The notes: generated from the letters alone by a model not told the origin. DNA of 64,000 nt from Candidatus Jorgensenbacteria bacterium GW2011_GWB1_50_10 (GCA_001004105.1 LCQK01000003.1:46805-110804); one strand, 5' to 3'. Positions 10,514 through 63,587 are shown, numbered from the stretch's first letter. A program made the numbers and translations.

Positions 10514-11411
10514 CATGAGAAGTTTACTGGAGATAATCCGGGAAACGGAAAAAGATAAGGTTGCAATAGGCCATTTCAATATTTCCAACCTGGAGCAGTT
10601 AAAGGCGATATCGCATGTCGCGGCGAAACTCAACGTACCGGTCATTATCGGCACATCGGAGGGCGAACGGGACTATATTGGTGTTCATCACGCCGTTGAT
10701 CTCGTCAAAAGTTACAACAAGGAGCACGCAAAAGGAAATTATCGGCTGTTTTTGAACGCCGACCACACCCATACTTTAGAGAACGCGAGGAAAGCGGCTG
10801 AAGTCGGTTATGACGCGATATTATTTGACGGCGGCAAACTGCCCCTTGAAGAAAATATCAGGGCTACGAAAGAAGTCGTAGAAATGGTGAGAAAAATCAA
10901 CAAAAACATCTTAGTTGAAGGTGAGCTGGGCTATATCGGTTCGTCTTCGGAAGTAAGGAAGGAAATTCCGGAAGGGGCGGCGATTAATCCCGGGGATTTG
11001 ACCAGACCGGAGGAAGCAGCGAGGTTCGTTGAAGAAACCGGCGTGGATATGCTTGCGCCGGCGGTGGGGAACATTCACGGCATGTTCGCGAACGCTCCGG
11101 AGCCGCGGCTTGATATAGAACGCATCCGGGAAATCAAGAAAGCGGTTGAAAACCTGCCTGCCGGCAGGCAGGTCCCGCTTGTTTTGCACGGCGCCTCCGG
11201 CAACACCGATGAAGATTTAAGTGTGGCAATCGATGCTGGAATTTCCATAATCCACATTTCCACCGAGCTTCGCGTTGCTTGGCGCAAGGGTTTGGAAGAA
11301 GCTTTGAAGGAGAATCCTGACGAAGTCGCGCCCTACAAGCTGATGCCCGAGGATTTGGCAGAAATGGAGAAAGTGGTGGAGAGAAAATTACGCCTCTTCA
11401 ATAAACTGTAA
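10503..11411 (+). CDS. fba: class II fructose/tagatose-bisphosphate aldolase
   Basis: DHTHT... and LHGASG motifs; carries in-frame palindrome insert (ENLPAGRQ) at 11153-11172. Confidence 0.9.
   Translation: MKFNMRSLLEIIRETEKDKVAIGHFNISNLEQLKAISHVAAKLNVPVIIGTSEGERDYIGVHHAVDLVKSYNKEHAKGNYRLFLNADHTHTLENARKAAEVGYDAILFDGGKLPLEENIRATKEVVEMVRKINKNILVEGELGYIGSSSEVRKEIPEGAAINPGDLTRPEEAARFVEETGVDMLAPAVGNIHGMFANAPEPRLDIERIREIKKAVENLPAGRQVPLVLHGASGNTDEDLSVAIDAGISIIHISTELRVAWRKGLEEALKENPDEVAPYKLMPEDLAEMEKVVERKLRLFNKL
11153..11172. repeat. 20-bp perfect palindrome CCTGCCTGCCGGCAGGCAGG (copy, in-frame in fba; extends to 22 bp with A/T flanks)
   Basis: Exact repeat; encodes LPAGRQ. Confidence 0.9.
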
Positions 11412-11436
11412 GAAGCAAAAGATTAGAAATACGCTT

Positions 11437-11455
11437 ACTATGACATGTCATAGCG
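11437..11455. repeat. 19-bp site ACTATGACATGTCATAGCG (contains 16-bp palindrome CTATGACATGTCATAG), copy 1
   Basis: Identical 19-mer also at 11876-11894; flanks the YerC-like ORF. Confidence 0.7.
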
Positions 11456-11457
11456 CG

Positions 11458-11856
11458 TCAATAATGGTGCATGTAGACTTTTCCGTATTTAGTGCGGCGG
11501 TAGTATCTATAGGGTTTCTTTTTAGAAGGGTGACTGCTGTTGTATACTTTCTTTTTCCGCCCCGTTTTGCCTCGTTCCCGGTAGCTCCGATAACCACTCC
11601 CTTCCAGCGCTTTTTTGATACTGCTTACGGTCTGCGGCGAGAGATGGAGTTCCTCGACAATCTGCACGAATTTTTTCCCTGAATTCATGCGGTCTGCTAC
11701 CGCGGCGCGCATAACAAGATTATGACGTTCGTTGGAGGTGGTAAATAGTTCCAAGAGTTCTCTGGATTCTGATATCTTCTTCCAGCACGCTCTTTCCCAT
11801 TCCTTACGCGAAGAGTACTGGTTGGTTGGCGGCAACGATAATAAATTCCTGGTCAT
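11458..11856 (-). CDS. TrpR/YerC-YecD-like helix-turn-helix DNA-binding protein with basic C-terminal tail
   Basis: ELLELF...N..E...L..R..VA..M.SGKKFVQIVEELHLSPQTVSSIKKAL matches YerC/TrpR-like pattern; ORF bracketed by identical palindromic sites. Confidence 0.4.
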   Translation of the reverse strand: MTRNLLSLPPTNQYSSRKEWERACWKKISESRELLELFTTSNERHNLVMRAAVADRMNSGKKFVQIVEELHLSPQTVSSIKKALEGSGYRSYRERGKTGRKKKVYNSSHPSKKKPYRYYRRTKYGKVYMHHY

Positions 11857-11875
11857 AAGGTAAGTTTAACATATC

Positions 11876-11894
11876 ACTATGACATGTCATAGCG
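11876..11894. repeat. 19-bp site ACTATGACATGTCATAGCG, copy 2 (about 20 nt upstream of YerC-like start codon)
   Basis: Identical to 11437-11455. Confidence 0.7.
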
Positions 11895-11943
11895 TTTTTA
11901 CTGGGTAGTCAGTTGTTTTGTTGCTCTATTCTCGCATATAAAA

Positions 11944-11972
11944 TTGACAAGCTTGTATAAATAGGGTATACT
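11944..11972 (+). promoter_or_regulatory. sigma70-like promoter TTGACA-17nt-TATACT upstream of DGR target gene
   Basis: Consensus -35 hexamer at 11944-11949, -10 at 11967-11972. Confidence 0.5.
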
Positions 11973-12053
11973 TTAGGGCAGTACAATAATGGTGAGTCTG
12001 CGGGTCTGGTAAATGCCGGACTGGGGGACGAACCACAAAAAGAGAGGTACAAG

Positions 12054-12749
12054 ATGGCGAAAAAGACGGATGAACTGGTGCAGTTTGCGGGCCACTTCCA
12101 GTCGCTCGCGACTGCGGTTTCCCGCAACCTCGAAGAGCGCGGCGTAAACGTTGTTGAGGCAATCGCGGAGGCCGCAAAGCCGCAAGGCGCTCGGGCGGTC
12201 GCGAAGATCGTAGACGCGCTCGCCGAACTCGTTGAAAACGGCAAGCGGGTCGTCGGCGCTCTCAATCTCATCGTGGCCGACATCGCCGTGAAGACCGAAC
12301 TCTTCACAAAAAATTCGTTCTTCGGCGAGGGGAGCCCAGTAAAACTCTACATCTGGGATAACTTCCGGAACTGGGTACTCACGGCTATCCTTGAGAATAT
12401 ACCTGCGTTCCAGGGTATGCTCGTGAAGCACCAACTCACGAAGGGGATGTATGACTCGGAGATTCTCTCCGGACTCGGGCATCCCACGCCGTTCTCACCA
12501 ACCGAGTTCGCGGCTGTCATTCGCGACCTCATCTCCAAGCAATCGAGAGGCGAGGAGGGCCTTCTCCTCACGAACGGCTACGCCAACATCTTCTATGTAC
12601 AGTTGCCTGCCGGCGCAGGCGGGGAAGATGCACGCGTGGTCGCGGTGCGCGTGACCTGGAACGCCGGGGACGACGACTGGCACCTGGACGCCTACGGCTT
12701 GGACGACGACGGGTGGGGTGACGGTGTCTGCGTGTTCTCTCGCAGCTGA
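12054..12749 (+). CDS. DGR variable (target) protein with C-terminal VR
   Basis: C-terminal 113 nt (12631-12743) near-identical to TR; ends CVFSRS; paralog at 48342-48932; contains degenerate palindrome insert LPAGAG at 12603-12622. Confidence 0.85.
   Translation: MAKKTDELVQFAGHFQSLATAVSRNLEERGVNVVEAIAEAAKPQGARAVAKIVDALAELVENGKRVVGALNLIVADIAVKTELFTKNSFFGEGSPVKLYIWDNFRNWVLTAILENIPAFQGMLVKHQLTKGMYDSEILSGLGHPTPFSPTEFAAVIRDLISKQSRGEEGLLLTNGYANIFYVQLPAGAGGEDARVVAVRVTWNAGDDDWHLDAYGLDDDGWGDGVCVFSRS
12603..12622. repeat. decayed palindrome-family copy TTGCCTGCCGGCGCAGGCGG inside DGR target 1 (encodes LPAGAG absent from paralog)
   Basis: Target 1 reads VQLPAGAGGEDARVVAV where paralog reads [11 protein letters not shown]. 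Confidence 0.5.
12631..12743 (+). repeat. DGR variable repeat (VR)
   Basis: 113-bp alignment to TR 12998-13110 with 14 mismatches, every one at a TR adenine. Confidence 0.9.
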
Positions 12750-12781
12750 TCTCGGATTTTCGGTCTCTTGGCAATAGTAGT

Positions 12782-12824
12782 GCGCCCCGTTCGAGTTCTT
12801 CGGAACTTGGACGGGGCGTTTTTG
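12782..12824 (+). terminator. GC-rich hairpin plus T-tract immediately downstream of VR (terminator and/or DGR homing-associated hairpin)
   Basis: GCGCCCCGTTCGAGTTC-ttcg-GAACTTGGACGGGGCG followed by TTTTTG. Confidence 0.5.
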
Positions 12825-12997
12825 TTATAATAAAAATGAAATTTTTTGACATCACTGCGGTCAAGGCTTCAGTGGGAAGATTTCAAAAAACAGAAAGGTC
12901 AGCTGGTGTAGGGCGCTAACGGGTGCGAAAGACCCGGCATTAGATGCAACGCTTAGAGGAATCAAAGCGCAGTGGCAAGGGCGGCGCTTTACACGAT

Positions 12998-13110
12998 AAC
13001 GCGTGGTCGCGGTGAACGTGAACTGGAACGCCGAGAACGACGACTGGAACCTGAACGCCAACGGCTTGGACGACGACAGGTGGAATGACGGTAACTGCGT
13101 GTTCTCTCGC
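12998..13110 (+). repeat. DGR template repeat (TR)
   Basis: AAC-codon-rich 113-bp copy of VR; all VR differences map to A in this copy. Confidence 0.9.
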
Positions 13111-13125
13111 CGCTTACCTTTTATA

Positions 13126-13461
13126 TCAGTTCTTTGGGAGCTGTTTTAGCCAACCGCCCAGCATTTTTCCAACTTCGTCAACTTTTCCAGAAAGCGCGGC
13201 GTATTTTTTCGTGTCCAGAGATTTGATTTGCCAGGCAATTTGGAGGAAAAATTTTAGTGAGTCAAGTTTAAAAGAGGAATTCCTGATTTTTGCAAACCGT
13301 TCGGCTGGCGTGAGAGGGGCGGCTGAGAAAATTTCTTCGATAATATCCAAGAAAAGCAAATCTACTTTTACGCCGAGAGTATAGCGCGAGGTTTTGGGAA
13401 AATGAGGCGCGAATTCTTGCCAAAGCGTGTAGGCCGCGATTAGTTTCTGAATAATTGGCAG
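13126..13461 (-). CDS. avd: Avd-like accessory variability determinant (four-helix-bundle, TIGR02436-like); start codon uncertain
   Basis: ...FPKTSRYTLGVKVDLLFLDIIEEI...LKFFLQIAWQIKSLDT...VDEVGKMLGGWLKQ pattern; frame open back to 13482 with no ATG/GTG/TTG (ORF table start is TTG at 13359). Confidence 0.6.
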   Translation of the reverse strand: MPIIQKLIAAYTLWQEFAPHFPKTSRYTLGVKVDLLFLDIIEEIFSAAPLTPAERFAKIRNSSFKLDSLKFFLQIAWQIKSLDTKKYAALSGKVDEVGKMLGGWLKQLPKN

Positions 13462-13498
13462 TTCATTCCGTCGGGGGGGGGTTAGAGGACGGGAATTT

Positions 13499-14482
13499 AT
13501 GAAAATTCAATTGAGCCATAAATTCGAAGATATTATTTCACTGGAAAATCTTTTGGAAGCATGGCGAGAATTTTTGCGCGGCAAGAGAAATAAAAGAGAC
13601 GTTCAGGAATTCTCATCGCGTTTAATGGATAACATTCTATTACTTCACAGCGAACTTCGCAATAAAACCTACAAGCACGGGAAGTACGAAGCCTTTAACA
13701 TCTCCGACCCCAAACCGAGAAACATCCACAAAGCCGCCGTCCGCGACCGCCTACTTCATTACGCTATTTACAGGGTTTTATATCCGTTTTTTGATAAGGT
13801 ATTCATCGCCGATTCTTTTTCCTGCCGTTTGGGAAAAGGGACGCACAGAGCCATCAACCGCTTTAGAACTTTTGCTTATAAAGTGAGTAAAAATAATACC
13901 AAAACCTGCTGGGTTTTAAAGTTGGATATTAGGAAATTCTTCGCGAGTATTGACCATGAAATTTTGATAAAAATTCTTGAGGAATACATACCCGACCAAG
14001 ACATTATCTGGTTGCTGAAGAAAGTGATAGAAAGTTTTTATTCGACCGAACCCGGCAAGGGCCTGCCTTTAGGCAATTTAACCTCCCAGCTTTTAGTAAA
14101 TGTTTACATGAACAAGTTTGACCAATTTGTGAAACACAAGTTCAAGGCCAAGTATTACGTGAGATACGCCGATGATTTTGTGATTGTGTCGAAAAACGGA
14201 ATATGGCTTGAAAGTTTAATTCCGAGAATCAGCGAATTTCTAAACAGAGAATTGAAGTTAAAACTTCACGACGATAAGATATTCATTAAAACTTTAGCTT
14301 CGGGAGTAGATTTCCTTGGCTGGGTTCACTTTCCGGATTACCGAGTTCTGCGAACCACGACCAAAAGAAGAATGTTTAAAAGAATCAAAGAACATCCCGC
14401 GCCGGAAACAATAAATTCTTATTTGGGATTATTAAGGCACGGGAACGCTTATAAATTAAAAAGAAAAATTATTGCTGAATAA
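13499..14482 (+). CDS. DGR reverse transcriptase
   Basis: RT motifs incl. YADDFV; motif 4 LGNLTSQ (I/LGxxxSQ hallmark of DGR RTs); 327 aa without maturase/endonuclease domains. Confidence 0.9.
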
Positions 14483-14498
14483 TTTTTTTTGTGTTTTA

Positions 14499-15242
14499 AT
14501 GGCGTTTATGGAAGCTAGTATTAGCAAGATAATTTTAGAGATTCGGGCGGGCACGGGCGGGGACGAGGCCTCGCTTTTTGCCGGCGATTTGGCGCGGATG
14601 TATCAGAGGTTTGCCGCCCGGCGGGGCTGGAAATTCTCGACGCTCGATGCGAGCGAGTCCGGCGCGCGCGGCTATAAGACGTTCATCGCGGAGATCGGCG
14701 GCCCGGGCGTCTACGAGGCATTGAAGAACGAATCCGGCGTGCACCGGGTGCAGAGAGTGCCGGATACCGAACGGGGCGGCCGGGTGCATACCTCAACCGT
14801 ATCGGTCGCGGTTTTACCCGTAGTGGAAACCAAGGATTTTCAAATTAAAGAAAGCGATTTGGAAGTGACTTTCTCCCGCGCCGGCGGTCCCGGCGGCCAG
14901 AACGTGAACAAAGTGGAAACTGCGGTTCGAATCACCCATAAACCCACCGGCGTTGTCGTAGGTTCCAGGGAAGAACGGAGCCAGCACGCCAATCGCGAGA
15001 AAGCGATGGAGGTCTTGCGGGCCAAGCTTTACGAGGCGCAGAAAGAACAGCAAGTGGGGTCGGTTGCGGAGTTGCGGAGAGGGCAGATCGGCTCGGCCGG
15101 ACGGGCGGAGAAGGTAAGGACATATAATTTTCCGCAGGATAGAATTACAGATCACAGAGTAAGTAAAAAATGGAGTAATATTGAAAAGATATTAGAAGGT
15201 AATCTTGACCCAATCATACAGGCATTTTTGAAAGTCAATTAA
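14499..15242 (+). CDS. prfA: class I peptide chain release factor, RF1-like, lacking N-terminal domain 1
   Basis: [12 protein letters not shown]..., RVQRVPDTE (PxT-type), GGQ motif [28 protein letters not shown]; begins where RF1 domain 2 begins; stop TAA just upstream of the ORF; 3' end is AT-rich and duplicated downstream. Confidence 0.8.
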
Positions 15243-15248
15243 AAAATC

Positions 15249-15268
15249 CCTGCCTGCCGGCAGGCAGG
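15249..15268. repeat. 20-bp perfect palindrome CCTGCCTGCCGGCAGGCAGG (copy, intergenic, 6 nt after prfA stop)
   Basis: Exact 20-mer also at 11153, 17913, 51722, 63521. Confidence 0.9.
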
Positions 15269-15269
15269 C

Positions 15270-15372
15270 GCACCTATAATTTTCCGCAGGACAGGATAAC
15301 CGACCACCGTCAGGGCAAAAAGGTTTCAAATATTCTGAAAGTTCTCGACGGCGATTTGGACAAACTAACCGG
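15270..15372 (+). pseudogene. displaced original 3' end of release factor gene ([35 protein letters not shown])
   Basis: In-frame-translatable GC-rich duplicate of the RF C-terminal coding segment located after the palindrome; homologous to 15127-15242. Confidence 0.6.
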
Positions 15373-16979: not shown

Positions 16980-17669
16980 TTATTTTTTCTTCTCTTCTTC
17001 CTTGGGCGGTGTTTCTTTTTTCTCCGGCTCCGCTGCCTGCCTGCCGGTAGGCATGGCTTTCGCTTCGGTTTCGGCCGGAGCGGCCGGTGTTTCGGCTATC
17101 GGAGGCGGCGCAACAACTTCCTCCTTCACTTTTTCGGTTACGGTCGCAATCACGGTTTCCTCCGGCGCGAGAATTTTTACTTCGGAAGGCGCGCGCAGGT
17201 CGCTAACGTGGATGCTGTCGCCCATTTTCTCCAGCTTGCCCAAATCAACCTGAAAGGAGTGGGGGATTTTGTCGGGTAGGGATTTGACTTCAATTTCGTG
17301 CAGCACCCGGACGATCACCAAACCGGCTTTTTCCGCCGGAGCGGTGCCTGTGAATTCCACCGGCACTTTTGTTTCAATCGCCTCATCCATTTTAATTTGA
17401 TGGAAATTCACCGAAAGCGTTTTTCTGGTCAGGGGATGTTCCTGAACCTCGGAAATTAAGATTGGAATTTTTCCGCCCTTCTCGTTTATCAAATAAACGA
17501 CGGTGTGGCTGCCGGCTTTGCGGTAGACTTTAACGAAATCGTTTTCCGAAACGGCAAGGTGCTGGTTTAGAACGCCGCTCCCGAAAAGTTCGGCCGGAAC
17601 CAAACCCGCCCTCCGGAGGGATTTCACTTTTTTCCCCAAAATTTCCCTTGTTTTGACTGCGAGTTCCAT
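16980..17669 (-). CDS. rplY: 50S ribosomal protein L25 (Ctc form) with charged C-terminal tail
   Basis: MELAVKTREILGKKVKSLRRAGLVPAELFG... ; tail contains degenerate palindrome-encoded MPTGRQ. Confidence 0.85.
   Translation of the reverse strand: MELAVKTREILGKKVKSLRRAGLVPAELFGSGVLNQHLAVSENDFVKVYRKAGSHTVVYLINEKGGKIPILISEVQEHPLTRKTLSVNFHQIKMDEAIETKVPVEFTGTAPAEKAGLVIVRVLHEIEVKSLPDKIPHSFQVDLGKLEKMGDSIHVSDLRAPSEVKILAPEETVIATVTEKVKEEVVAPPPIAETPAAPAETEAKAMPTGRQAAEPEKKETPPKEEEKKK
17036..17055. repeat. degenerate copy of 20-bp palindrome (CCTGCCTGCCGGTAGGCATG, 2 mismatches), in-frame in rplY tail
   Basis: Seen in sequence; encodes MPTGRQ on - strand. Confidence 0.6.
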
Positions 17670-17675
17670 TTCTTT

Positions 17676-17912: not shown

Positions 17913-17932
17913 CCTGCCTGCCGGCAGGCAGG
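17913..17932. repeat. 20-bp perfect palindrome CCTGCCTGCCGGCAGGCAGG (copy, between rpmE start and rRNA promoter)
   Basis: Exact repeat. Confidence 0.9.
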
Positions 17933-17997: not shown

Positions 17998-18120
17998 GAA
18001 AGCATTATGTAGCACGGGTTTTTAAAACTTCTGTAATATGAGTTTTAAGACACCCGCGATGGGTGTTTTGTTATCCCCGATACATAACGCAAATTGAAAA
18101 CTCCACCAGTAATTGAAAAC

Positions 18121-18135
18121 TTTTTTAGTTGTCCC
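18121..18135 (+). other. 5' half of 16S processing stem (TTTTTTAGTTGTCCC), complementary to 19783-19797
   Basis: 15-nt perfect complementarity bracketing the 16S gene, as expected for an RNase III processing helix. Confidence 0.55.
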
Positions 18136-18167
18136 AATTTATTTTGAATTTGGAAAGCCAAATTCTT

Positions 18168-19651
<1,484 letters not shown>

Positions 19652-19782
19652 TATTCTCTTCAGAGAGAGTAATAGTCGATTGCAAGATTGCTGACTGCAG
19701 GGTTCGTAATTCAGAATTCTGCAATGAGCAATTAGCAATAAAATTAGAGGTGTTAGTCGTGGAGCCTGAAGTCACGACCTTG

Positions 19783-19797
19783 GGACAACTAAAAAAG
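19783..19797 (+). other. 3' half of 16S processing stem (GGGACAACTAAAAAA)
   Basis: Reverse complement of 18121-18135. Confidence 0.55.
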
Positions 19798-19981
19798 TTT
19801 TTAATGAAAAGAAAGCGAGAATACCCTCGCTACCGTTCGCTCGCCCAGCGAGCTCGCTCACTTGCACTCTCGCCTCGCTCGTCCCGCCAAGCGGGACACC
19901 GTGCCCGCTCGGCTCAAGAGCGGCGCTCGAATATTCTCGCTTTCTTTTGCGTGGGGCAGGAAGGAATAGTATAATAATGTT

Positions 19982-27765: not shown

Positions 27766-27799
27766 GCTTCAATTTATCCCATATGGGATAAATTGAAGC
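27766..27799. terminator. 34-bp perfect palindrome GCTTCAATTTATCCCATATGGGATAAATTGAAGC between convergent genes
   Basis: Seen in sequence. Confidence 0.55.
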
Positions 27800-48228: not shown

Positions 48229-48341
48229 GAAGTTGACAAGATTAGATTTTTGTGCTAAAGCTTAAACTAGCACGAACTGGCAACCTAAAGCCCCAACGAA
48301 TGTTGAGGGTGAGAGGAAACCATAACAAGGAGAGGCAAAGA

Positions 48342-48932
48342 ATGATGAAGGGAACGAACGGACTCGAGTGGCTTGCGGACCGCTGGCAGTCGGTTGCGAC
48401 TGCAGTTCCCCGCCGCTTTGAGAATCGTGGAGTTAGCGGCGGGGAGGTAATTGCCGCCGTAACCAAGCCCCAGACCAGGAGTATTGTGGTCCAGACCGAG
48501 CCCTTTGCTAAGGACTCGTTCTTTGGGGAGAGCGGTCCCGCGGAGCTCTGCATTTGGGACAACTTCCGAACCCAGGTGCTATCAGCAGTTTCCGAGACCG
48601 TGCCCGCGTTTCGAGGCACGCTCACGAGAACTGAGCTTGAGGAGCACATGGGGGACTCCGAGATTTTCGCCAACGGGACATCCCGGCCGCTCCTCTCGCC
48701 GGACGATTTTGTTGCGGTCGTCCGTGACCTCATCTCCCGCCAGCCGAGAGGTGAGAGGGGAATCCTTCTCACAAACGGGGATGCCAACATCTTCCATGTG
48801 CAGCCGGAGGATGGACCTGTGGTTGCGGTGCGTGGGCGCTGGCGCGTTGGTCTCGGCGGTTGGAGCCTGCGCGCGTATGGCCGGGACGACGTCAGATGGC
48901 TCAAAGGCCACTGCGTGTTCTCCCGCGGCTGA
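48342..48932 (+). CDS. DGR variable-protein paralog (second, diverged target) inserted between uvrB and uvrA
   Basis: Homologous along its length to 12054-12749 (e.g. [36 protein letters not shown]...); ends CVFSRG; start taken at ATG 48342 after AAGGAGAGG. Confidence 0.75.
48819..48926 (+). repeat. diverged VR-like repeat (about 68% identity to TR 13003-13110)
   Basis: 19 of 36 mismatches vs TR at TR adenines; TR AAC codons correspond to CGC/CGT/CTC/AGC/TAT/CAC; 3' GC-clamp CTGCGTGTTCTC conserved. Confidence 0.6.
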
Positions 48933-49062: not shown

Positions 49063-51588
49063 ATGCAGGACAAAATTGTTATAAAAGGAGCAAGAGAGCA
49101 TAATCTCAAGAACGTCAATCTGGAAATTCCTCGCGACAAAATGGTGGTTTTTACCGGGCTTTCCGGGTCGGGGAAATCCTCGCTGGCTTTTGACACGATT
49201 TTTGCCGAGGGCCAGCGCCGCTACATTGAATCGCTCTCGGCCTATGCCCGGCAGTTTTTAGGTCGTTTGGACAAGCCTGATGTTGACGAAATTGACGGAT
49301 TATCGCCCGCGATTTCCATTGACCAGAAAAGCCATTCTCACAACCCGCGCTCCACGGTCGCGACCGTCACGGAAATTTACGATTATCTCCGCGTTCTTTT
49401 CGCCCGCGTGGGCATTCCCCATTGTCCGAAGTGCGGCCGGGAAATCAAAAAAATGACGAACGAGGAAATTGTGGATACCGTGCTCCGGATTTATCAAAAC
49501 AAAAAATCCGACAAAAACCTCGTGGTTTTGGCGCCGGCTGTCCGCGGCCGGAAAGGGGAATATTATCAGCTCCTTTACGATTTCTTAAACGCCGGTTTTC
49601 GAGAAGCACGCATTGACGGTAAGATTCATAACTTGCGGGAAAGAATTGAGCTTAGCCGTTACAAACAGCACACAATAGAGCTCGTGGTGGATAGATTGCC
49701 TGACGGTTTGGATATGCGCGAGAAGGACAATCGCTTGCGTTTGGCCGAAGCGGTGGAGTCGGCCTTGAAATACGGCAACGATGTTGTAACCGTGATTGCC
49801 GATGAAGAAGAAACTTCGCTCTCCGCCAAATTCACTTGTCCCAACGACAGTTACTCTTTTCCGGAAATAGAGCCGCGACTTTTTTCCTTCAACAGCCCCT
49901 ACGGCGCCTGCGAGGTCTGCCACGGTTTAGGGACGGAGAGCATTTGGTCGGAAAAACCCTGTCCCAAATGTTTAGGCAAGCGTCTGCGAGACGAAGCGTT
50001 AAGTGTTCTCATTGCTGATAAAAGCATTGCCTCGGTTGTGGCAAATTCTATAAGCAACGCCCGTAAATTCTGCGATGAAGTGGAAGGAAAAATTGACGAG
50101 AATTTCAAGGAGGTGGTTTCAGCGCCACTGCGCGAAATCAAAAACCGGCTGAAATTCATGATTGATGTCGGTTTGGAATATCTCACGCTTGAACGGCGAG
50201 CCGGGACGCTCTCGGGCGGCGAAGCTCAGCGTATCCGCCTCGCCTCCCAAATCGGTTCGCGTCTCACCGGCACGCTCTACATATTGGACGAACCGACTAT
50301 CGGTCTTCACCAGCGCGACAACGCGAAACTCATCGCTACTCTCCAAGATTTGCGGGATTTAGGGAACACCGTCCTCGTTGTGGAGCACGACGAGGAAACC
50401 ATCCGCCAGTCGGATTATCTCGTGGACATCGGGCCGGGCGCCGGCGTCCACGGCGGTAAAATCGTGGCCCAAGGGTCGATTCCCGAAATTCTCTCCGACA
50501 AAAAATCCAAGTCGCTCACCATCGATTACCTGAACGGCAGGGAATTCATTCCCGTGCCGGAGAAAAGACGGCCGGTGACGCGGAAGGGCGACTTTTTGGT
50601 GATAAAGGGCGCAAGCGCGAATAATCTGAAAGACATTGACGTGCAAATTCCCTTGCACCGGTTTGTGGCCGTAACCGGTGTTTCCGGCTCAGGAAAAAGT
50701 TCCTTGGTTTATGATGTCATCTACAAAGCGCTCGCCAATGCCTGGAACGGCGCAAATTATAAAGTCGGCGCGCATAAAGGCATGACCGGTTTGGAAAATT
50801 TGAACCGTGTGATTAATATTGACCAGTCGCCGATAGGTCGTACCCCGCGTTCCAATCCAGCCACTTATGTCGGCGCTTGGACTTTTATCCGCGAGCTTTT
50901 TGCCGCAACCGAAGACGCCCGCGTCCGCGGCTACAAGCCGGGACGCTTCAGTTTCAATGTCCGCGGCGGGCGGTGCGAAAACTGTGAAGGCCACGGCACG
51001 ATTGCGATTGAAATGCACTTTTTGCCGACCGTTTACGTCACTTGCGACGTCTGCAAAGGCAAGCGTTTTGATCGCGAGACTCTGGAAGTTGAATATAAAC
51101 ATAAGAACATTTATGACATCTTAAAGATGACCGTGGAGGAAACAGTGGAGTTTTTCCGCGATATTCCCTGGCTTTACGACCGGCTGAAAATTCTGGAAGA
51201 AGTGGGTTTGGGCTATTTAACGCTGGGGCAGTCGGCGACGACTTTGTCTGGCGGCGAGGCCCAGCGGATAAAACTCACGGCCGAACTCGGCAAGCGCGAC
51301 ACTAGGAAAACGATTTATCTTCTTGATGAACCGACGACCGGTCTTCATTTTGCCGACGTTCAGAATCTTTTGAAAGTTTTGGACCGGTTGGTCGCGCGCG
51401 GCAATACTGTTGTTGTGATTGAACATAACTTGGATGTCATCAAGACCGCTGACTGGGTGATTGACTTGGGGCCCGAAGGCGGCGAAAAGGGCGGGGAGAT
51501 GATTGTCGCCGCGCCACCCGAAGGCGTCATGAAAAAAGCCGGTAGTTTTACGGGCGCTTACCTCAAGAAAGCCCTCGCTAAAAAATGA
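49063..51588 (+). CDS. uvrA: excinuclease ABC subunit A
   Basis: [17 protein letters not shown] start; two ABC modules, zinc fingers; 842 aa. Confidence 0.95.
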
Positions 51589-52814
51589 AAAAACTTCACG
51601 CCAAAATGCCAGATTCGCCGGGCGTCTACTTAATGAAAAACGCTCGCGGCCGGATTCTTTATATCGGCAAGGCGGCAAATTTAAAAAGGCGGGTTTCCAG
51701 TTATTTTTTGCGTCCCGCACGCCTGCCTGCCGGCAGGCAGGATTCGCGAATTGAAAAAATGGTGAGCGAGGTGCGCAAGATTGATTACAAAAAAACCGAC
51801 ACTGCTTTGGAAGCACTAATTTTGGAGGCGACTCTTATTAAAAAACACGAACCGCCCTATAACGTCAGAGAAAAAGACGACAAGAGCTTCCTTTACGTGG
51901 AAATAACGAAAGATAAATTCCCGCGAGTGCTTTTGGTGCGCGGCCGTGCCTACCGGCAGGCAGGCAAAAGCCGGGCGGGAGGGGATAGATTTGGACCGTT
52001 TACTTCTGCTTCAAGTGCGCGGGAGGCGCTCCGCATCATCCGCAAAATTTTTCCGTTCAGCGTCCATCCGGCGGATAAAATCGGCAAATTCAAGAAACCC
52101 TGTTTTGACTACGAAATTGGTCTTTGTCCGGGTACTTGCGCCGGTCTTATAGATAAGACCGATTATCTGAAGAACGTCAGAAACATCAAACTGCTTTTCC
52201 AAGGCAAGAAAGCGGCCATATTGAGGACGCTAAAACGGGAAATGGAAGCGGCGAGCAAGCGGCTGGACTTCGAAAAAGCCGCCAAATTACGGGGCCGGAT
52301 TTTCGCGCTGGAGCACGTGCAGGACGTGGCGCTCATCAAGAGCGAGGAAGACAGCGGTACGGAAAACAAGGCAAGAATTGAAGGATACGACATTTCCGAT
52401 ATTTCCGGGACATCGGCCGTGGGAGCGATGGTTGTTTTTCGCGGCGGCAGACCGGCACCGAATGAATACCGGAAGTTCAAAATCGGCACGGTTTTTAAAC
52501 CGAACGATACTGCAATGTTGAAAGAAGTGATTGGCCGGCGTTTGAACCATCGGGAATGGCCGCTGCCCGATTTATTCCTGATTGACGGCGGCAAGCCGCA
52601 GGTGAACGCCGCAAAAAAGATTCTCAGAGATTCCGGTTTCGTGATTCCGGTCGTGGGCATCGCCAAGGGCGCGAAACGAAAGAAAAACGAATTCATTGGT
52701 TCTATACCCTACAACCTATCACCTATAACCTTGATTAAGGTTCGCAACGAAGCCCACCGTTTCGCCCAAAGTTACCACAAAAGGTTAAGGAAAATAATCT
52801 CACTAGGTTTGTAA
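51585..52814 (+). CDS. uvrC: excinuclease ABC subunit C-like (short form: GIY-YIG, UvrBC-interacting and RNaseH-like domains, no C-terminal HhH)
   Basis: GVYLMKN..GRILYIGKAANLKRRVSSYF GIY-YIG; ...EAHRFA...; palindrome-encoded RLPAGRQD insert inside GIY-YIG region. Confidence 0.8.
   Translation: MKKLHAKMPDSPGVYLMKNARGRILYIGKAANLKRRVSSYFLRPARLPAGRQDSRIEKMVSEVRKIDYKKTDTALEALILEATLIKKHEPPYNVREKDDKSFLYVEITKDKFPRVLLVRGRAYRQAGKSRAGGDRFGPFTSASSAREALRIIRKIFPFSVHPADKIGKFKKPCFDYEIGLCPGTCAGLIDKTDYLKNVRNIKLLFQGKKAAILRTLKREMEAASKRLDFEKAAKLRGRIFALEHVQDVALIKSEEDSGTENKARIEGYDISDISGTSAVGAMVVFRGGRPAPNEYRKFKIGTVFKPNDTAMLKEVIGRRLNHREWPLPDLFLIDGGKPQVNAAKKILRDSGFVIPVVGIAKGAKRKKNEFIGSIPYNLSPITLIKVRNEAHRFAQSYHKRLRKIISLGL
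51722..51741. repeat. 20-bp perfect palindrome CCTGCCTGCCGGCAGGCAGG (copy, in-frame in uvrC)
   Basis: Exact repeat; encodes LPAGRQ. Confidence 0.9.
51945..51964. repeat. degenerate palindrome copy CGTGCCTACCGGCAGGCAGG (2 mismatches) inside uvrC
   Basis: Seen in sequence. Confidence 0.5.
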
Positions 52815-56895: not shown

Positions 56896-56909
56896 ACTGG
56901 TTTTCAATC

Positions 56910-58193: not shown

Positions 58194-59074
58194 TTGACGT
58201 CATCAAACATAAAAATATATACCTCGGTGTTTCTTTGGCGCTCGTCGTTTTGAGCTGGGCTTTGGTCGGTTTCCTAGGTTTGAAGCCGGGCATTGATTTG
58301 GTTGGCGGCACGGTCTGGCAGATTGACGCGCCGGAGGCGGATTTGGATGAAGTGCGGTCGGTTTTGAACGAAAATGGAGCGGCGGATTTTCAGATCAAGA
58401 TTGCGGGCGACGGCAGCTTCATTATCCGGTTGAAGGATTTGAGCGAAGAAAATCACCAAGGTTACTTGAGAGCGCTCCAGGATGAATTTCCCGCCGTAAC
58501 CGAGATGAATTTCTCGAGCATCGGCCCGACCATCGGCTCGGAACTCCGCCGAAGCTCCATTTGGGCGATTATTCTGGTTTTAATCGGCATCTCGCTCTAC
58601 GTCGCTTTCGCTTTCCGGAAAGTTTCCGAACCGGTCAAATCCTGGAAATACGGTTTGATTACTCTCCTTACGCTCCTTCATGACGTGAGCATTCCGGCCG
58701 GCCTTTTGGCCGTTTTGGGTGAGTGGAAAGGAATTGAGATAGACACCAATTTCATTGTCGCCCTTCTCGTGGTAATGGGCTTTTCCGTCCACGACACGAT
58801 AGTCGTTTTCGACCGGGTTCGGGAAAATCTTCAGCTTTTCCGCGGGCGCAACACGCCATTGGGTGAAATTGTGAACCGAAGCGTCAATGAAACCATAGCC
58901 CGCTCAATCAACACGTCGCTCACGCTGGTCCTTGTTCTTTTGGCGCTCATGGTTTTCGGTCCCGCCCCGCTTTTCTATTTTGTTCTTACGATTCTCTTCG
59001 GCACCGTCGTCGGCACCTATTCCTCCATTTTCGTCGCTAGCCCTATGCTGTACCTTTGGCAGAAAAAGAGGTGA
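58190..59074 (+). CDS. secF: protein translocase subunit SecF
   Basis: GIDLVGGTVWQIDA..., SecF TM core. Confidence 0.9.
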   Translation: MIDVIKHKNIYLGVSLALVVLSWALVGFLGLKPGIDLVGGTVWQIDAPEADLDEVRSVLNENGAADFQIKIAGDGSFIIRLKDLSEENHQGYLRALQDEFPAVTEMNFSSIGPTIGSELRRSSIWAIILVLIGISLYVAFAFRKVSEPVKSWKYGLITLLTLLHDVSIPAGLLAVLGEWKGIEIDTNFIVALLVVMGFSVHDTIVVFDRVRENLQLFRGRNTPLGEIVNRSVNETIARSINTSLTLVLVLLALMVFGPAPLFYFVLTILFGTVVGTYSSIFVASPMLYLWQKKR

Positions 59075-59138
59075 GTGGGTGGGGATTGACGCCCTTTCCC
59101 AAAAGTGCTAAAGTTTAGATTAATAATTTGTTACCAAT

Positions 59139-60158
59139 ATGGTTGATTTAGACAAATTCATTGCCAAAGTTACAGCCGATTTCAGCCCCAAACACCGCCG
59201 GGTAATTGAGGGCCGTTTTGGCCTGAAGTCCGGCAACCGGGCCACCCTGCAGAAAATAGGCGACGAGCTTCACATCACCCGCGAGCGGGTGAGGCAAATA
59301 GAAAGCCAGGCGGTGGGTAAACTTAAAACCAGGGTTGCGGCGGAGGCCGACAGCATCATTGCCGCATCACGGACATATTTAGCCGGAGCGGGTGGCATAA
59401 TGCGGGACGACAAATTCATCCGCGACCTGACCCACGTTTTGGAAACCGCCGATAAAAACACGAAATATCCGGAAGCCAAAATCAGGTTCGTTCTTTTGGT
59501 TGCCGGCGTTCCCAATTTCCAGGCCGCCGACGATTTCATGCACGGCTTTTGGTATACCGACGAAAAAGCCCGGGACGGTTTTTTGGGTTTCGTTAAAAGA
59601 GTCAAGAAGACCCTTGAAACGAGCCGCCGGGACGAAGTTTTGGAGAAAAAAGTTTATCTTGCCGAGTGTAAGGATTGCGCCACGGCTCATTTTTTGAACG
59701 TGCCGCGCATTTTTGGCGTGAATGTCTTCGGCGATTTTGGTTTGCGGGAATGGCCCGAGATTGAACCAAAAACCGTCCGCGACAAGGCCTATTTGGTTTT
59801 GAAAAAGGAGGGAAAGCCGCTGCATTTTTCCGATATCGCCAAATTCATTACCCGCGCTGGTCTTTCCAAAAGAACGGCTCACGTTCAGACCGTTCACAAC
59901 GAACTCATTAAAGACAACCGGTTCGTTTTGGTCGGCCGTGGCATTTACGCTCTCACCGAGCACGGCTTTGAGCCGGGCACTGTTCGGGAAGTAATCGGCA
60001 AGCTTTTGAAAAAGAAAGGACCGCTCTCTTCCACCGAAGTGGTGCGGCTTGTGAACCAACAGAGAATTTTGAAAGAAAACACCATCCTTTTGGGTTTGCA
60101 GAATAAGCGCCACTTCAAGCGTTTGACCGACGGACGTTATCATATAAGAGAAGCGTAA
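59139..60158 (+). CDS. DNA-binding protein with sigma-70 region-4-like HTH and C-terminal HARE-HTH-like domain
   Basis: ATLQKIGDELHITRERVRQIESQAVGKL (sigma r4 signature); C-terminal KAYLVLKKEGKPLHFSDIAKFI... Confidence 0.55.
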   Translation: MVDLDKFIAKVTADFSPKHRRVIEGRFGLKSGNRATLQKIGDELHITRERVRQIESQAVGKLKTRVAAEADSIIAASRTYLAGAGGIMRDDKFIRDLTHVLETADKNTKYPEAKIRFVLLVAGVPNFQAADDFMHGFWYTDEKARDGFLGFVKRVKKTLETSRRDEVLEKKVYLAECKDCATAHFLNVPRIFGVNVFGDFGLREWPEIEPKTVRDKAYLVLKKEGKPLHFSDIAKFITRAGLSKRTAHVQTVHNELIKDNRFVLVGRGIYALTEHGFEPGTVREVIGKLLKKKGPLSSTEVVRLVNQQRILKENTILLGLQNKRHFKRLTDGRYHIREA

Positions 60159-60164
60159 AAGCGC

Positions 60165-61556
60165 ATGCTTAAAAATCTCTTCGGCCACATCCTCGACGTT
60201 ATTGAAGAACTTTTCAAGCAGGAGGAGGTTTGGGTTTTTTTGTTTCTGATACTGCTCGGCGGGGCTTTAATTCTGTTTTTGCCCATAAAATACATCATCT
60301 GGGCGCTTTTGCCTTTTATAATTTTTGTGATTATTTTCTCACTCACCCGCTCGCTCTGGCTTTTCTGGCGGCAAGAAATGTACAAGCAAAAACATTTTAA
60401 GTGCGTGCTTTTAGAGCTCCGAATCCCGCGGCAGATTAAGAAAACGCCGGAGGCGATGGAACAGGTTTTGGCGGCGATGCATTCGCTACGGAACACGGCC
60501 AATAATCTTGGAGAAAAATATTGGGACGGTGAAATAACGCGTTGGTTCTCTCTAGAAGTTGTAAGTTTTGGCGGCGAAGTTCACTTCTATATCCGGGTTT
60601 ATGAAAAACAAAGAAACCTGCTTGAAGCCGCCCTTTTCTCTTATTATTCGGATATTGAAGTGGTGGAAGTGGAAGATTATGTTAATACATTTCCGCGGGA
60701 TTTACCCGAGGTGTACCGGCGGGATATGGACCTGTGGGGCAGCGAGATGGTCTTGAGGAAAGAAGACCTTTTCCCCATCAAAACTTACCCTTCTTTTGAA
60801 GCGGAGCTGGAAGAAAGACAGAACGACCCGATGTCCACCTTTTTGGAGGTTTTAGGCAAAGTTAAGCCCAGTGAAGTTGTCGGCATCCAAATTTTAATTG
60901 CCCCGGGTCTGGATGACTGGGATAAAAAATGGGAACCCCTTGTAAATAAATTAAAAGAACCAAAAACCAAAAAAGAGGAGAAGAAAGGCGCCGAGGGGCA
61001 AATGGAAAGTTTTGCGCGGTTTATTGCCCGGTCGCCGGTGGAAACCGACGTCTTGAAAGCCGTTGAAGAGAACCTTTCTAAGCCCGCTTTTAATACTTTA
61101 GTTCGTTTTATCTATCTCTCGCCCAAAAATATTTTTTATGACAGTTTTGCCCGCCGCGGCTTATCTGGCGCTTTCAATCAATACTCAACCCTCCATCTGA
61201 ACGGTTTTGTGCAAAATTACAAAATGAGTACGAGAACGCTTATTTGGCACTGGCCTCACCTTTTTCCCAGGTGGCGCAATGAATATAGAAAACAGCGACT
61301 CCTCTTCACATATCTCCGAAGAGAAGTGCCGCCCGAGACCTGGATGGGCCGGTTCATGACATCATATCCGTTAAACTTTAATTTTACCTCCCATCGTTTT
61401 CATCTGAACATAGAGGGAGCGGCTACTGTTTTTCATCCGCCGAGCTTAATCGTTCTTACCGAGCCGCATATCAGGCACTTGGAGAGCCGCCGCATGGGTC
61501 CGCCGTCCGGTTTGCCGATTTTCGGCGAAGACGAGGAGGTGGAAAAATACAAGTAG
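60165..61556 (+). CDS. membrane protein homologous to the N-terminal half of the fused coupling-protein (29728-32076); split form
   Basis: 2 N-terminal TM helices; LLELRIPRQIKKTPEAMEQVLAAMHSL...EVVSFGGEVHFYIRVYE aligns with LVRLPKSGKEG...EIAVPYVGEEIHFFVGVHRS. Confidence 0.65.
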   Translation: MLKNLFGHILDVIEELFKQEEVWVFLFLILLGGALILFLPIKYIIWALLPFIIFVIIFSLTRSLWLFWRQEMYKQKHFKCVLLELRIPRQIKKTPEAMEQVLAAMHSLRNTANNLGEKYWDGEITRWFSLEVVSFGGEVHFYIRVYEKQRNLLEAALFSYYSDIEVVEVEDYVNTFPRDLPEVYRRDMDLWGSEMVLRKEDLFPIKTYPSFEAELEERQNDPMSTFLEVLGKVKPSEVVGIQILIAPGLDDWDKKWEPLVNKLKEPKTKKEEKKGAEGQMESFARFIARSPVETDVLKAVEENLSKPAFNTLVRFIYLSPKNIFYDSFARRGLSGAFNQYSTLHLNGFVQNYKMSTRTLIWHWPHLFPRWRNEYRKQRLLFTYLRREVPPETWMGRFMTSYPLNFNFTSHRFHLNIEGAATVFHPPSLIVLTEPHIRHLESRRMGPPSGLPIFGEDEEVEKYK

Positions 61557-62081
61557 ATGAATTTACTGCAGTCAATCATCAATGCCGTTTCCGATTTTCC
61601 CTGGGTGCGCACTTTTTGGAGCGTCCGTTTCATTTTCATTGTTTTGAACATAATTCTCGCCGTTCTTTTCGTTTACGTTTTCATCCGGGCCCTGAAATAC
61701 CGGCCGAAGTTTTACTTCGATTCGGAAGCACTCGCCAAAAGAAAGAAAATCATAAGAGAAGGCGCGAAGTGGGGAGATAAGTGGAAATATCTTTTGGAAA
61801 AAGCCCGAGCGCATCCGCCGCAGTCGCTCTTTATGGGCGTGGTTGAAGCCGACGGTTTGGTGGATAGCGTTTTGAAAAAAATAGGCGTGCCTGGGGAACA
61901 CATGGCCGACCGCCTGGAGCGGCTTGCCGGCCGGAACTTGAAGACCATTGAGCGCCTCTGGAGAGCGCATAAAGTCCGCAATGACCTGGCTCACACGCCG
62001 GGCTTCACGCTTGATTCACACGACGCTGAGGAGATTTTGGGGGATTACGAAGCATTCCTAAAAGAAATAGGAGCGATATAG
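61557..62081 (+). CDS. hypothetical membrane-anchored protein (174 aa) between split coupling-protein halves
   Basis: ATG overlaps upstream stop (TAGATG); one TM helix. Confidence 0.5.
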   Translation: MNLLQSIINAVSDFPWVRTFWSVRFIFIVLNIILAVLFVYVFIRALKYRPKFYFDSEALAKRKKIIREGAKWGDKWKYLLEKARAHPPQSLFMGVVEADGLVDSVLKKIGVPGEHMADRLERLAGRNLKTIERLWRAHKVRNDLAHTPGFTLDSHDAEEILGDYEAFLKEIGAI

Positions 62082-62105
62082 TTTGAAAATTGAAAATTTT
62101 TTGAC

Positions 62106-63587
62106 ATGCCTAAGCCTGGAAAAATACAAATAATCCGTTATGCGCCGCCGCCGCCGGACCTGCCGGTCTACGGCCGCATTGACCCGAAAGACGTTTCTTT
62201 CATCGGCCGGACCAATTACGTGGCGGCCCTGGAAGAGAAAAAATTCATCTTCGGTATCAAGCGCCACGACCGGAGGCGGCACCTTTACGTCATCGGCAAA
62301 AGCGGTGTCGGCAAGTCCAAGGCGCTGGAGCTTTTAATCCGGCAGGATATTGCTTTCGGGCACGGCCTTTGCCTCATTGACCCGCACGGCGACGTGATTG
62401 AGGCGACTTTGGATTTTGTGCCGCAAAGCCGCGTGGAGGACGTGGTGATTATTGACCCGTCGGATTCGGAGCATCCAGTTTCTTTTAATCCTCTTCAGAA
62501 TGTTGACCCGTTTTTCAAACATCAGCTGACTCAAGGGCTGATTGAGGTGATGGAGAAGCAGTTCGGCGCAAACTGGACGCCGCGCCTGGAGCATGTTTTC
62601 CGTTTCACTTGCCTTGCTCTTTTGGATTATCCTCACGGCACGATGCGGGGGATGATTTCCATGCTCACCGACCGCAATTACCGGCAAAAAGTCATTGAAT
62701 ACATCGGCGACGATATGGTCAAGCGTTTCTGGGCCATTGAATTCGCCGACTGGTCGGAGAAATTCGACACCGACGCTATCATCCCGCTCGTGAACAAGCT
62801 CGGCCAGTTCCTTTCCGACCCGATGCTCCGGAATATCTTCGGCCAGAAAGAAAATAAGATTGATTTGGAAGAACTGATGAACAAAAAGAAAATTATTTTG
62901 ATTAACCTTTCTAAGGGCCGGCTCGGCGAGGAAAATTCCAGTTTTTTCGGCTCCATGTTCATCACCAAAATCAAACAGGCGGGCATGGCCCGGGCTAAGA
63001 TACCCGAGTCGGCGCGGCACGATTTTTATCTTTATGTTGACGAGTTTCAGAACGTTGTGACTGAAACTTTCGAAAATTTGCTGACCGAAGCGAGAAAATA
63101 CGGTCTTTGCATGACTATTGCCCATCAGTACCTAGGTCAGCTTCTGCCGAAAGTGAAAGCCGCAGTTTTGGGCAATGTCGGCAGCCTGATTGTTTTCCGG
63201 GTTGGCGGTGAGGACGCGGAGACGCTGGAGCCAGAAATGGCGCCACTTTTCAAAAACAAAGACATGATTAACCTCGGCATGCAGGAGTTTTACATCAAAA
63301 TGATAATCGACGGCGAGTCCTACGACCCGTTCTCGGCGGAAACCTTGAAAATATTGCCCTCACCCCACGGTTCGCTCAAAAAGGAAATCATCGAGGCCTC
63401 GCGCCGGAAATATTCCATTCCCGCCGATGCCGCCAAAAAACTCATTGAAGAAGAAGAGTCAACGATTATCAGGAGCGCCCAGGAAAAAGCCATTATTACC
63501 GGCGGCAAGGATAAAAAAGACCTGCCTGCCGGCAGGCAGGAAAGTGAAGAAAGCGACGCCGCCAAAATGGAAGAGCCACTCATATAG
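62106..63587 (+). CDS. VirD4/TraG-like coupling-protein ATPase domain protein (split form C-terminal half)
   Basis: Walker A GKSGVGKSK, Walker B FYLYVDEFQNV, IAHQYLGQL, VGSLIVFRVG; C-terminal tail with palindrome-encoded DLPAGRQE. Confidence 0.8.
   Translation: MPKPGKIQIIRYAPPPPDLPVYGRIDPKDVSFIGRTNYVAALEEKKFIFGIKRHDRRRHLYVIGKSGVGKSKALELLIRQDIAFGHGLCLIDPHGDVIEATLDFVPQSRVEDVVIIDPSDSEHPVSFNPLQNVDPFFKHQLTQGLIEVMEKQFGANWTPRLEHVFRFTCLALLDYPHGTMRGMISMLTDRNYRQKVIEYIGDDMVKRFWAIEFADWSEKFDTDAIIPLVNKLGQFLSDPMLRNIFGQKENKIDLEELMNKKKIILINLSKGRLGEENSSFFGSMFITKIKQAGMARAKIPESARHDFYLYVDEFQNVVTETFENLLTEARKYGLCMTIAHQYLGQLLPKVKAAVLGNVGSLIVFRVGGEDAETLEPEMAPLFKNKDMINLGMQEFYIKMIIDGESYDPFSAETLKILPSPHGSLKKEIIEASRRKYSIPADAAKKLIEEEESTIIRSAQEKAIITGGKDKKDLPAGRQESEESDAAKMEEPLI
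63521..63540. repeat. 20-bp perfect palindrome CCTGCCTGCCGGCAGGCAGG (copy, in-frame in C-terminal tail of coupling-protein ATPase)
   Basis: Exact repeat; encodes LPAGRQ. Confidence 0.9.

Follow-up and report, generated by a model that had tools for sequence, protein, structure and literature searches.

We describe a short palindromic DNA element, PAL (CCTGCCTGCCGGCAGGCAGG, a perfect 20-nt palindrome), which occurs in five exact copies in a 64-kb stretch of a Candidatus Jorgensenbacteria genome from the GW2011 groundwater set (hereafter "the window", meaning the whole stretch of DNA that was analysed). The fba and uvrC products of the window match the protein records of this set with 100% identity. 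Comparisons with orthologous genes and with intact tRNA genes demonstrate, at the level of aligned sequences, that PAL is an insertion, that the inserted unit comprises 20 nt and arrives without target duplication, and that orthologues are polymorphic for it. Database searches likewise demonstrate an identical 20-mer in different phyla. In other genomes PAL is tightly and physically coupled to a cassette made up of a small GIY-YIG nuclease gene and its tRNA architecture. PAL is thus in our view probably a 20-bp insertion element and the cognate palindrome of this tRNA-associated mini-nuclease cassette, whereby recognition and mobilization by the nuclease are deduced by analogy.

Results

PAL copies in the window

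All five exact copies listed in the original prediction, which was made from the window sequence, were found again at their positions, and none of 100 dinucleotide-preserving shuffles gave any. Cores nested in PAL, from the 10-mer through the 20-mer, were found in the window solely within these five copies, so that the unit is the whole 20-mer. The 18-nt core that had been proposed as the inserted unit is therefore replaced by a unit of 20 nt plus a separate +1 base. The three degenerate copies that had been named besides could also be recovered, two of them at two mismatches and the third (12603) in a more decayed state. The copies and one associated fragment are as follows.

11153-11172, in fba (10503-11411, + strand): exact PAL; together with one extra A it adds NLPAGRQ, and the product reads ENLPAGRQV
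15249-15268, 3' of the release-factor gene (14472-15242, + strand): exact PAL, non-coding, 6 nt past the stop codon
15269-15379, + strand: second, displaced copy of the release-factor C-terminus (last 36 codons), directly after PAL
17913-17932, between rpmE and the 16S gene: exact PAL, non-coding, 12 nt upstream of the rpmE ATG (minus strand)
51722-51741, in uvrC (51585-52814, + strand): exact PAL, reading ARLPAGRQ
63521-63540, in the C-terminal tail of a VirD4/TraG-like coupling ATPase (62106-63587, + strand): exact PAL, reading DLPAGRQE
17036-17055, in the C-terminal tail of L25/Ctc: two-mismatch variant CATGCCTACCGGCAGGCAGG (minus strand), reading MPTGRQ
51945-51964, in uvrC: two-mismatch variant in another frame, reading (G)RAYRQA(G), a 7-aa insert
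12603-12622, in the target protein of a diversity-generating retroelement (12054-12749, + strand): decayed PAL-like stretch TTGCCTGCCGGCGCAGGCGG, reading LPAGAGG

The window copies of PAL are solo and probably non-autonomous insertions. The assignment of the 12603 stretch is the weakest of the eight. It retains the core TGCCTGCCGGC and differs from PAL by a 2-nt insertion and a 1-nt loss. An insertion had been predicted here from the comparison of the two retroelement targets; the stretch is indeed missing from the paralogue at 48252-48932, and the copy is identified as PAL by similarity only.

The release-factor site differs from the other window copies by its displaced gene end. Of its two C-terminal copies, the one within the gene is similar to the orthologues of the syntenic loci L121 and L123, and the fragment after PAL is more divergent; neither of these loci has PAL or an extra C-terminal fragment. 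The displaced fragment is probably a relic of a cassette-type insertion as described below.

PAL as a 20-nt insertion

Compared with solved aldolases (PDB structures) the window fba product has seven extra residues, and the six closest orthologues (P0002-P0007, 74-80% identity) have no insert. Seven scattered orthologues of 62-72% identity carry (N/D)LPAGR(Q/R) at the same place, and in a neighbour-joining tree the nearest neighbour of each of them is insert-free. At the DNA level the 20-mer is exact and located at the same nucleotide in five carrier lineages, with freely diverged flanking codons; over 589 nt of the fba region the identity between the window and L121 is 73%. In the empty site AAA is followed directly by ATT (L122), and filled sites hold PAL plus one base, an A within an A-run in four lineages and GA in L162. 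Since the frame-restoring change differs among lineages, this single nucleotide appears to have been hit independently more than once.

In uvrC the H of the consensus RP-H-DSR is replaced by ARLPAGRQ. The DNA of the window reads CCC G CAC G-PAL-AT TCG, that is, a 20-nt insert at CACG^AT and a +1 G four nucleotides upstream, and the same arrangement of PAL and +1 G is found in the uvrC gene of L159 (61% identical protein). Among the matches listed, 118 of 120 uvrC orthologues lack the exact-PAL insert. At the second uvrC site (51945) P0122 carries GHAYRQA, and the other orthologues among the matches listed carry no insert. The prediction that the palindrome is an insertion is upheld by both genes, with seven additional residues in fba and the replacement of H by ARLPAGRQ in uvrC. 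The distribution among orthologues, which had been suggested as a check, agrees with it: the closest fba and uvrC orthologues lack the insert, and scattered distant ones carry the exact 20-mer.

When PAL-bearing tRNA fragments were compared with the adjacent intact tRNA, a clean 20-nt insert with neither duplication nor loss was seen at 20 of 23 exact-PAL loci; at the remaining three the left flank was not exactly matched. Loci L037 and L106 likewise show a clean 20-nt insert.

No general fixed target-site duplication was detected at 168 distinct PAL sites. PAL is preceded by A in 42% of the arms, and A...T flanks occur at 25% of these sites. Apart from orthologous or duplicate loci, no DNA is conserved beyond the 20-mer. 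Nor does PAL overall prefer hairpin-prone targets: the folding of 60-nt windows round the insertion sites is not better than that of controls (mean z -0.06, Mann-Whitney p = 0.66), with a 12% tail of sites at a folding z below -2. Recent interspecies gene conversion as the cause of the patchy distribution was rejected, since the flanks differ within ~5 nt of PAL.

Three side observations concern the insertion sites. Direct repeats of 7 nt (with at most one mismatch) flank PAL at 13 of the 168 sites versus 0.4 expected, often within tandem heptamer arrays (e.g. L082 346, L101 1815, L045 773, L142 3391); a second mode of insertion or recurrent events at a single place might lie behind them. Nested copies occur in L018 (1070) and L042 (467), where an exact PAL is inserted at or beside the centre of another PAL. 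Finally, other short GC-rich inserts are found at the same fba and uvrC loop positions (window 11150-11175 and 51700-51970) in other lineages of the candidate phyla radiation. In fba they read RQAQGKP or QQVQGKS (DNA CTTCGACAAGCTCAGGGTAAACCGG in L123, 10001-10909), and in uvrC they include RLRQGYGGQA and SSFAKASADRS. With such inserts at the same positions, PAL seems to be one of several mini-insert families sharing hot spots.

Reading frame and tolerance in proteins

By its length of 20 nt PAL shifts the reading frame, and genic copies therefore survive only with a nearby +1 base that restores it. GatB, FtsK, fba and uvrC carry just these 20 + 1 nt and no other foreign sequence. In verified genes exact PAL reads LPAGRQ, namely in fba (five lineages), uvrC (two), FtsK, GatB and a PMT-family glycosyltransferase; long open reading frames (ORFs) in this frame over exact PAL in other genomes also included a transposase tail. 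The claim that genic copies always lie in the same frame thus stands for exact copies in verified genes and fails for the decayed copy at 51945, which reads RAYRQAG. It was also incorrect to assign LPAGRQ to the copy at 17036, where the L25 tail actually reads MPTGRQ.

As had been pointed out, LPAGRQ is the sole PAL frame without Cys. Long ORFs in the two Cys-containing frames are mostly spurious: eight of ten are devoid of Pfam domains, and the domains of the remaining two do not include PAL. In the 51945 copy a mutation has turned the Cys codon of its frame into a Tyr codon. The recurrent variant C(A/G)TGCCTACCGGCAGGCAGG, the form found when PAL is read in the PACRQAG frame, shows the same replacement of Cys by Tyr and additionally has His or Arg instead of Pro.

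An AlphaFold model of the window aldolase (mean predicted local distance difference test score, pLDDT, 95) places the insert in loop 217-225, between helix 205-216 and strand 226-228, in line with the suggested surface-loop position. Going by TIM-barrel topology, this loop would lie on the barrel face away from the active site. Genic exact copies sit in a loop or tail wherever their location could be checked.

Distribution across phyla and phages

One genome per GTDB species was scanned for the exact 20-mer, and the number of loci is a lower bound. PAL was found in at least 120 genome loci from more than ten phyla, compared to an arithmetic expectation for a random 20-mer of about once or less in 596 Gb. 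Carriers include many classes of Patescibacteria as well as Bacteroidota, Omnitrophota, Planctomycetota, Verrucomicrobia, Elusimicrobia, Ignavibacteria, Thermodesulfovibrionales (Nitrospirota-type), Bdellovibrionales, metagenome-assembled genomes labelled proteobacteria, and others. Among cultured Bacteroidota PAL is present in Winogradskyella echinorum, Flagellimonas yonaguniensis, Longitalea luteola, Flavivirga sp., Aquiflexum lacus, Agriterribacter humi and Aestuariivivens sediminis.

IMG/VR contributed 35 viral stretches with PAL, and one viral contig of 29 kb holds at least six copies. On the viral contig IMGVR_UViG_3300025106_000007 (L157 3916-4142) a 21-nt unit, CATGCCTACCGGCAGGCAGG plus C, forms a tandem array of at least 10 copies. 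The array is located at the contig end and can be read as an N-terminal (LPAGRHG)n stretch of a minus-strand ORF; 4 kb of this locus hold about eight PAL-like copies. Among the loci found by the 20-mer search, solo copies make up more than 90% and outnumber cassette-linked ones; they lie in intergenic DNA, tRNA genes and coding sequence.

Other GC-rich perfect palindromes were observed near PAL (L011, L015, L016, L032, L040, L112 1890-2300, L052, L062, L183, L219). These comprise TCCGCCAGCTGGCGGA, variants of which are found inside displaced tRNA fragments, GGGACAGGTCGCGACCTGTCCC, which forms an array with a period of roughly 44 nt, and TCCCGATAGCTATCGGGA.

Link to a mini GIY-YIG nuclease

In loci found by means of PAL, the palindrome is recurrently located in tRNA genes or fragments (D-arm, anticodon stem, variable loop or T-arm), and such copies often have as neighbours a small ORF and the same tRNA in intact form. 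Clustering of all ORFs from 155 PAL loci put a small GIY-YIG protein joint first by number of loci; of about ten GIY-YIG ORFs in these loci, six or seven have PAL directly upstream. A recurrent transposase beside PAL was not seen among the largest ORF clusters listed, which comprise GIY-YIG, phage and housekeeping families.

For a reciprocal test, a peptide motif was derived from an alignment of six nuclease proteins and used to collect 80 metagenome loci without consulting PAL. An exact PAL lies within 110 nt upstream of the nuclease ORF in 37 loci, a near variant (edit distance of at most 3) occupies the same place in another 23, and in 6 PAL or a variant is found only just downstream. The other 150 kb of these loci hold just 2 exact copies. 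In a nuclease tree PAL occurs in all clades, with clade-specific variants, although the proteins share no more than about 42-60% identity with the first aligned sequence. The suggestion to look for a co-occurring nuclease was therefore fruitful for other genomes, where a GIY-YIG cassette is coupled to PAL; the family is not encoded in the window itself.

The cassettes share a common anatomy. In nearly all of 60 loci scanned, an intact co-directional tRNA (Leu, Arg, Lys, Asn, Gly or Gln) starts 0-20 nt past the nuclease ORF. Upstream of the nuclease lies a duplicate of the same tRNA, from position 1 to about 21-44, i.e. to the anticodon stem-loop. PAL is inserted at position 9-32 of this duplicate. 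It ends 6-18 nt (mean 12.7) short of where the duplication stops and lies 11-54 nt before the nuclease ATG; in 28 of 31 non-redundant cassettes it is preceded by an A on the sense strand of the gene. A mirror form, in which tRNA and ORF are followed by a 3' tRNA fragment with PAL, is represented by L197, L206 and L195, and tandem cassettes by L203, L230 and L233. In the cultured Agriterribacter humi (L085) PAL lies in a full-length tRNA downstream of the nuclease ORF; in this locus and in L148 the PAL-bearing tRNA is otherwise intact. Protein genes can also be targets: in L060 (3861-4180) PAL and a GIY-YIG cassette split the central conserved region of hsdS, the specificity gene of a type I restriction system, and a clean, frame-breaking 20-nt PAL sits there about 40 nt upstream of the nuclease. 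At 13 of 172 PAL sites (~8%, in loci ascertained by PAL), versus 0.6% of control positions, one flank is present a second time in the vicinity, and the release-factor site of the window is among these 13. As a side observation, a nuclease ORF of the tandem cassette L233 (60-560) contains in-frame TGA codons, which suggests that the host uses an alternative genetic code.

The nuclease comprises 77-91 aa and matches Pfam GIY-YIG (PF01541) with E = 5e-17; residues Y, Y, G, R, H and E do not vary across the alignment. It is a catalytic core only, with no separate sequence-specific DNA-binding domain of the I-TevI type. No fitting NCBIfam family was found, and public records merely state "GIY-YIG nuclease family protein". 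Among solved structures it is closest to BH0048 and EF2693, both UPF0213 proteins, and to the nuclease domain of the structure-specific endonuclease SLX1. A confident structural model (pLDDT 89) matches 1zg2, SLX1 (template modelling score 0.6-0.7) and the I-TevI catalytic domain.

Discussion

Proposed mechanism and competing explanations

Under the reading favoured here, PAL as cognate palindrome of the cassette, the nuclease would recognize PAL either as duplex or as an extruded hairpin or cruciform, the latter being possible in view of its kinship to SLX1. Breaks made by the nuclease would drive homing of the cassette, and the same breaks may seed solo PALs in trans, by analogy to what has been proposed for RAYT (REP-associated tyrosine transposase) and REPs (repetitive extragenic palindromes). 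A more far-reaching version holds that PAL and the ~80-aa SLX1/UPF0213-type GIY-YIG protein form a hitherto unrecognized two-part selfish system across many bacterial phyla, in which a minimal nuclease, specific for structure or for sequence, would recognize the palindrome, home into tRNA genes and some protein genes while rebuilding the target, and seed solo copies throughout genomes including frame-restored inserts in essential proteins. This version we put forward tentatively, leaning slightly against it for the time being. If this is true, REP/RAYT would have a GIY-YIG counterpart, and no smaller mobile unit of nuclease plus site would be known.

Several observations weigh against a nuclease-driven origin of PAL. 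GIY-YIG enzymes cut DNA and do not join it, so that insertion would need host repair. Neither the window nor the seven related loci (fba and uvrC orthologues) encode the nuclease family, and trans action is thus an assumption here. Fourteen of the 80 cassettes are without PAL, and some of these carry unrelated AT-rich hairpins at that place. The cassette was seen on only one viral contig, versus 35 viral stretches with PAL, and GIY-YIG matches in cultured phages are only distant. The +1 G of uvrC, common to two proteins that are only 61% identical, is hard to square with independent insertion. Finally, around the PAL site the displaced fragment and the intact tRNA of a cassette do not differ in sequence. 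This weakens a simple model in which PAL protects the cleavage site, for such a model fails to explain immunity.

One competing explanation sees PAL as an independent hairpin parasite that depends on other, possibly host, machinery and piles up in neutral displaced tRNA near a break-prone nuclease gene. The large excess of solo copies would suit it, as would the phage PALs, mostly without cassette, the PAL copies in a window that has no nuclease gene, and the accumulation of other hairpins in the same displaced tRNA fragments (L183, L216, L219). It does not account for 66 of 80 cassettes having PAL or a near variant at a constrained place versus 2 copies in the other 150 kb, nor for the narrow spacing of 6-18 nt to the end of the duplication, the strong polarity (A at -1 in 28 of 31 cassettes) and the clade-specific variants inherited with the nuclease gene. 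We consider it unlikely.

Equally improbable appears a role of PAL in cis only, either as a 5'-untranslated hairpin controlling the nuclease or as a disabler of the displaced tRNA, with solo copies as relics of decayed cassettes or as repair by-products. The position 11-54 nt upstream of the ATG, a stable RNA hairpin (-13.9 kcal/mol) and the presence of other hairpins 7-21 nt upstream of the ATG in PAL-less cassettes are consistent with such a role; the release-factor site, which resembles a cassette relic with a displaced gene end, and the flank duplicates kept nearby at 13 of 172 sites would fit decay. Relics of cassettes are, in contrast, difficult to see in fba, uvrC, GatB and FtsK with just 20 + 1 nt and nothing else foreign, in one fba site hit in lineages with differing frame-restoring bases, in PAL inside the otherwise intact tRNAs of L085 and L148, or in the PAL-in-PAL copies of L018 and L042.

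That PAL is a motif selected by the host, such as a conserved peptide, a protein-binding or DNA-uptake site, or a terminator, is very improbable and largely refuted. Over-representation, the very strongly conserved nucleotide sequence and the abundance of type IV pilus genes in the window, as expected of a competent organism, could be cited in its favour; yet the closest orthologues lack PAL, it resides in coding, non-coding and tRNA DNA alike, no run of T follows any of the five exact window copies, PAL is coupled to a nuclease gene, and it is identical in unrelated phyla and phages, whereas uptake and binding sites are species-specific. An assembly, adapter or amplification artefact is scarcely credible: most carriers are metagenome-assembled genomes, but PAL is also present in cultured isolates and one complete-chromosome assembly, was obtained by many laboratories and assemblers, is kept in frame by compensating bases, and exists in decayed copies.

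Comparison with known systems

PAL fails the defining features of REP/RAYT, miniature inverted-repeat transposable elements (MITEs) and Rickettsia palindromic elements (RPEs). REP/RAYT is alike in that a short GC-rich palindrome is dispersed mostly solo while a few copies flank the gene of a small nuclease-type enzyme, for which an action on the palindromes has been proposed. The partner of PAL, however, is a GIY-YIG protein (UPF0213/SLX1-like) and not a Y1 HUH transposase of the IS200/IS605 type; the flanks of PAL lack conserved GTAG/CGTC (GTAG is found in a few copies, e.g. L144), PAL is perfect and identical across phyla whereas REPs are species-specific and imperfect, and the PAL cassette is tied to tRNA genes with a duplicated target. 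Like PAL, REPs have occasional copies inside genes (PMC3733652).

Free-standing GIY-YIG homing genes share with the cassette the GIY-YIG catalytic domain with its conserved Tyr, Tyr, Gly, Arg, His and Glu, the location of the gene in or beside a conserved target, and a duplication that leaves one copy intact and a displaced fragment. T4 SegB is encoded by a free-standing GIY-YIG endonuclease gene in a tRNA cluster, a tRNA neighbourhood comparable to that of the cassette, and fungal mitochondrial endonuclease genes supply a new gene end in place of the old one, which is displaced. Unlike these, the PAL-associated nuclease is a core of ~80 aa with no DNA-binding domain and is accompanied by a constant 20-bp palindrome that also spreads alone.

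Very short GC-rich mobile palindromes in AT-richer genomes, sometimes in genes and near mobile endonuclease genes, are also represented by the GC clusters of yeast mitochondria and the double-hairpin elements of Allomyces mitochondria. These are organellar and consist of longer or double hairpins with lineage-specific sequence; we know of no description of a bacterial cross-phylum counterpart. RPEs measure about 100-150 bp and have been described only in Rickettsia, whereas PAL comprises 20 bp, needs a +1 base, occurs in many phyla and has a candidate enzyme. Common to both is an in-frame insertion tolerated in conserved proteins, for PAL in fba, uvrC, GatB and FtsK; for RPEs, the background section of PMC3733652 refers to in-frame palindromic repeats tolerated in essential proteins. 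PAL resembles MITEs in being short and non-autonomous and can be viewed as two abutting 10-bp inverted repeats, but it is far smaller, mostly without target-site duplication and without a transposase.

A literature search of incomplete coverage, which leaves room for prior work, found no description of the PAL sequence, the LPAGRQ peptide or the pairing of PAL, GIY-YIG and tRNA. The main text of the REP survey PMC3733652 does not contain the PAL sequence, and the 2026 Minerva preprint does not mention GIY-YIG.

If correct, the proposed relation would provide the small GIY-YIG proteins beside tRNA genes in Patescibacteria, Bacteroidota and other phyla, which are very common and uncharacterised, with both a function and a DNA partner, and would explain odd inserts of 6-7 residues in conserved proteins of uncultured bacteria. 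A 20-bp sequence identical across phyla implies recent horizontal spread or strong recognition constraints. The relation of enzyme and site can be tested in cultured carriers (Agriterribacter humi with the cassette; Winogradskyella echinorum, Flagellimonas yonaguniensis and others with PAL), and a compact nuclease with a defined 20-bp site could serve as a tool. For genome annotation, PAL flags pseudo-tRNA fragments, displaced gene ends and spurious ORFs.

Additional features of the window

The fba and release-factor genes, adjacent in the syntenic loci L121 and L123, are separated in the window by the diversity-generating retroelement (reverse transcriptase 13499-14482; targets 12054-12749 and 48252-48932). 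The release factor (14472-15242) lacks the N-terminal domain, with a Pfam PCRF match that begins at profile position 96, and its orthologues in L121, L123 and L160 are just as short (242-246 aa). No tRNA genes are present in the window, which contains one unlinked 16S gene (18166-19651) with no 23S gene after it; the 16S gene is bracketed by a 26-nt inverted repeat of 96% complementarity (18112-18137 and 19780-19805). A 16-nt palindrome, CTATGACATGTCATAG, occurs in two copies (11438-11453 and 11877-11892) beside the ends of two minus-strand ORFs near the retroelement, and a perfect palindrome of 34 nt lies at 27766-27799.

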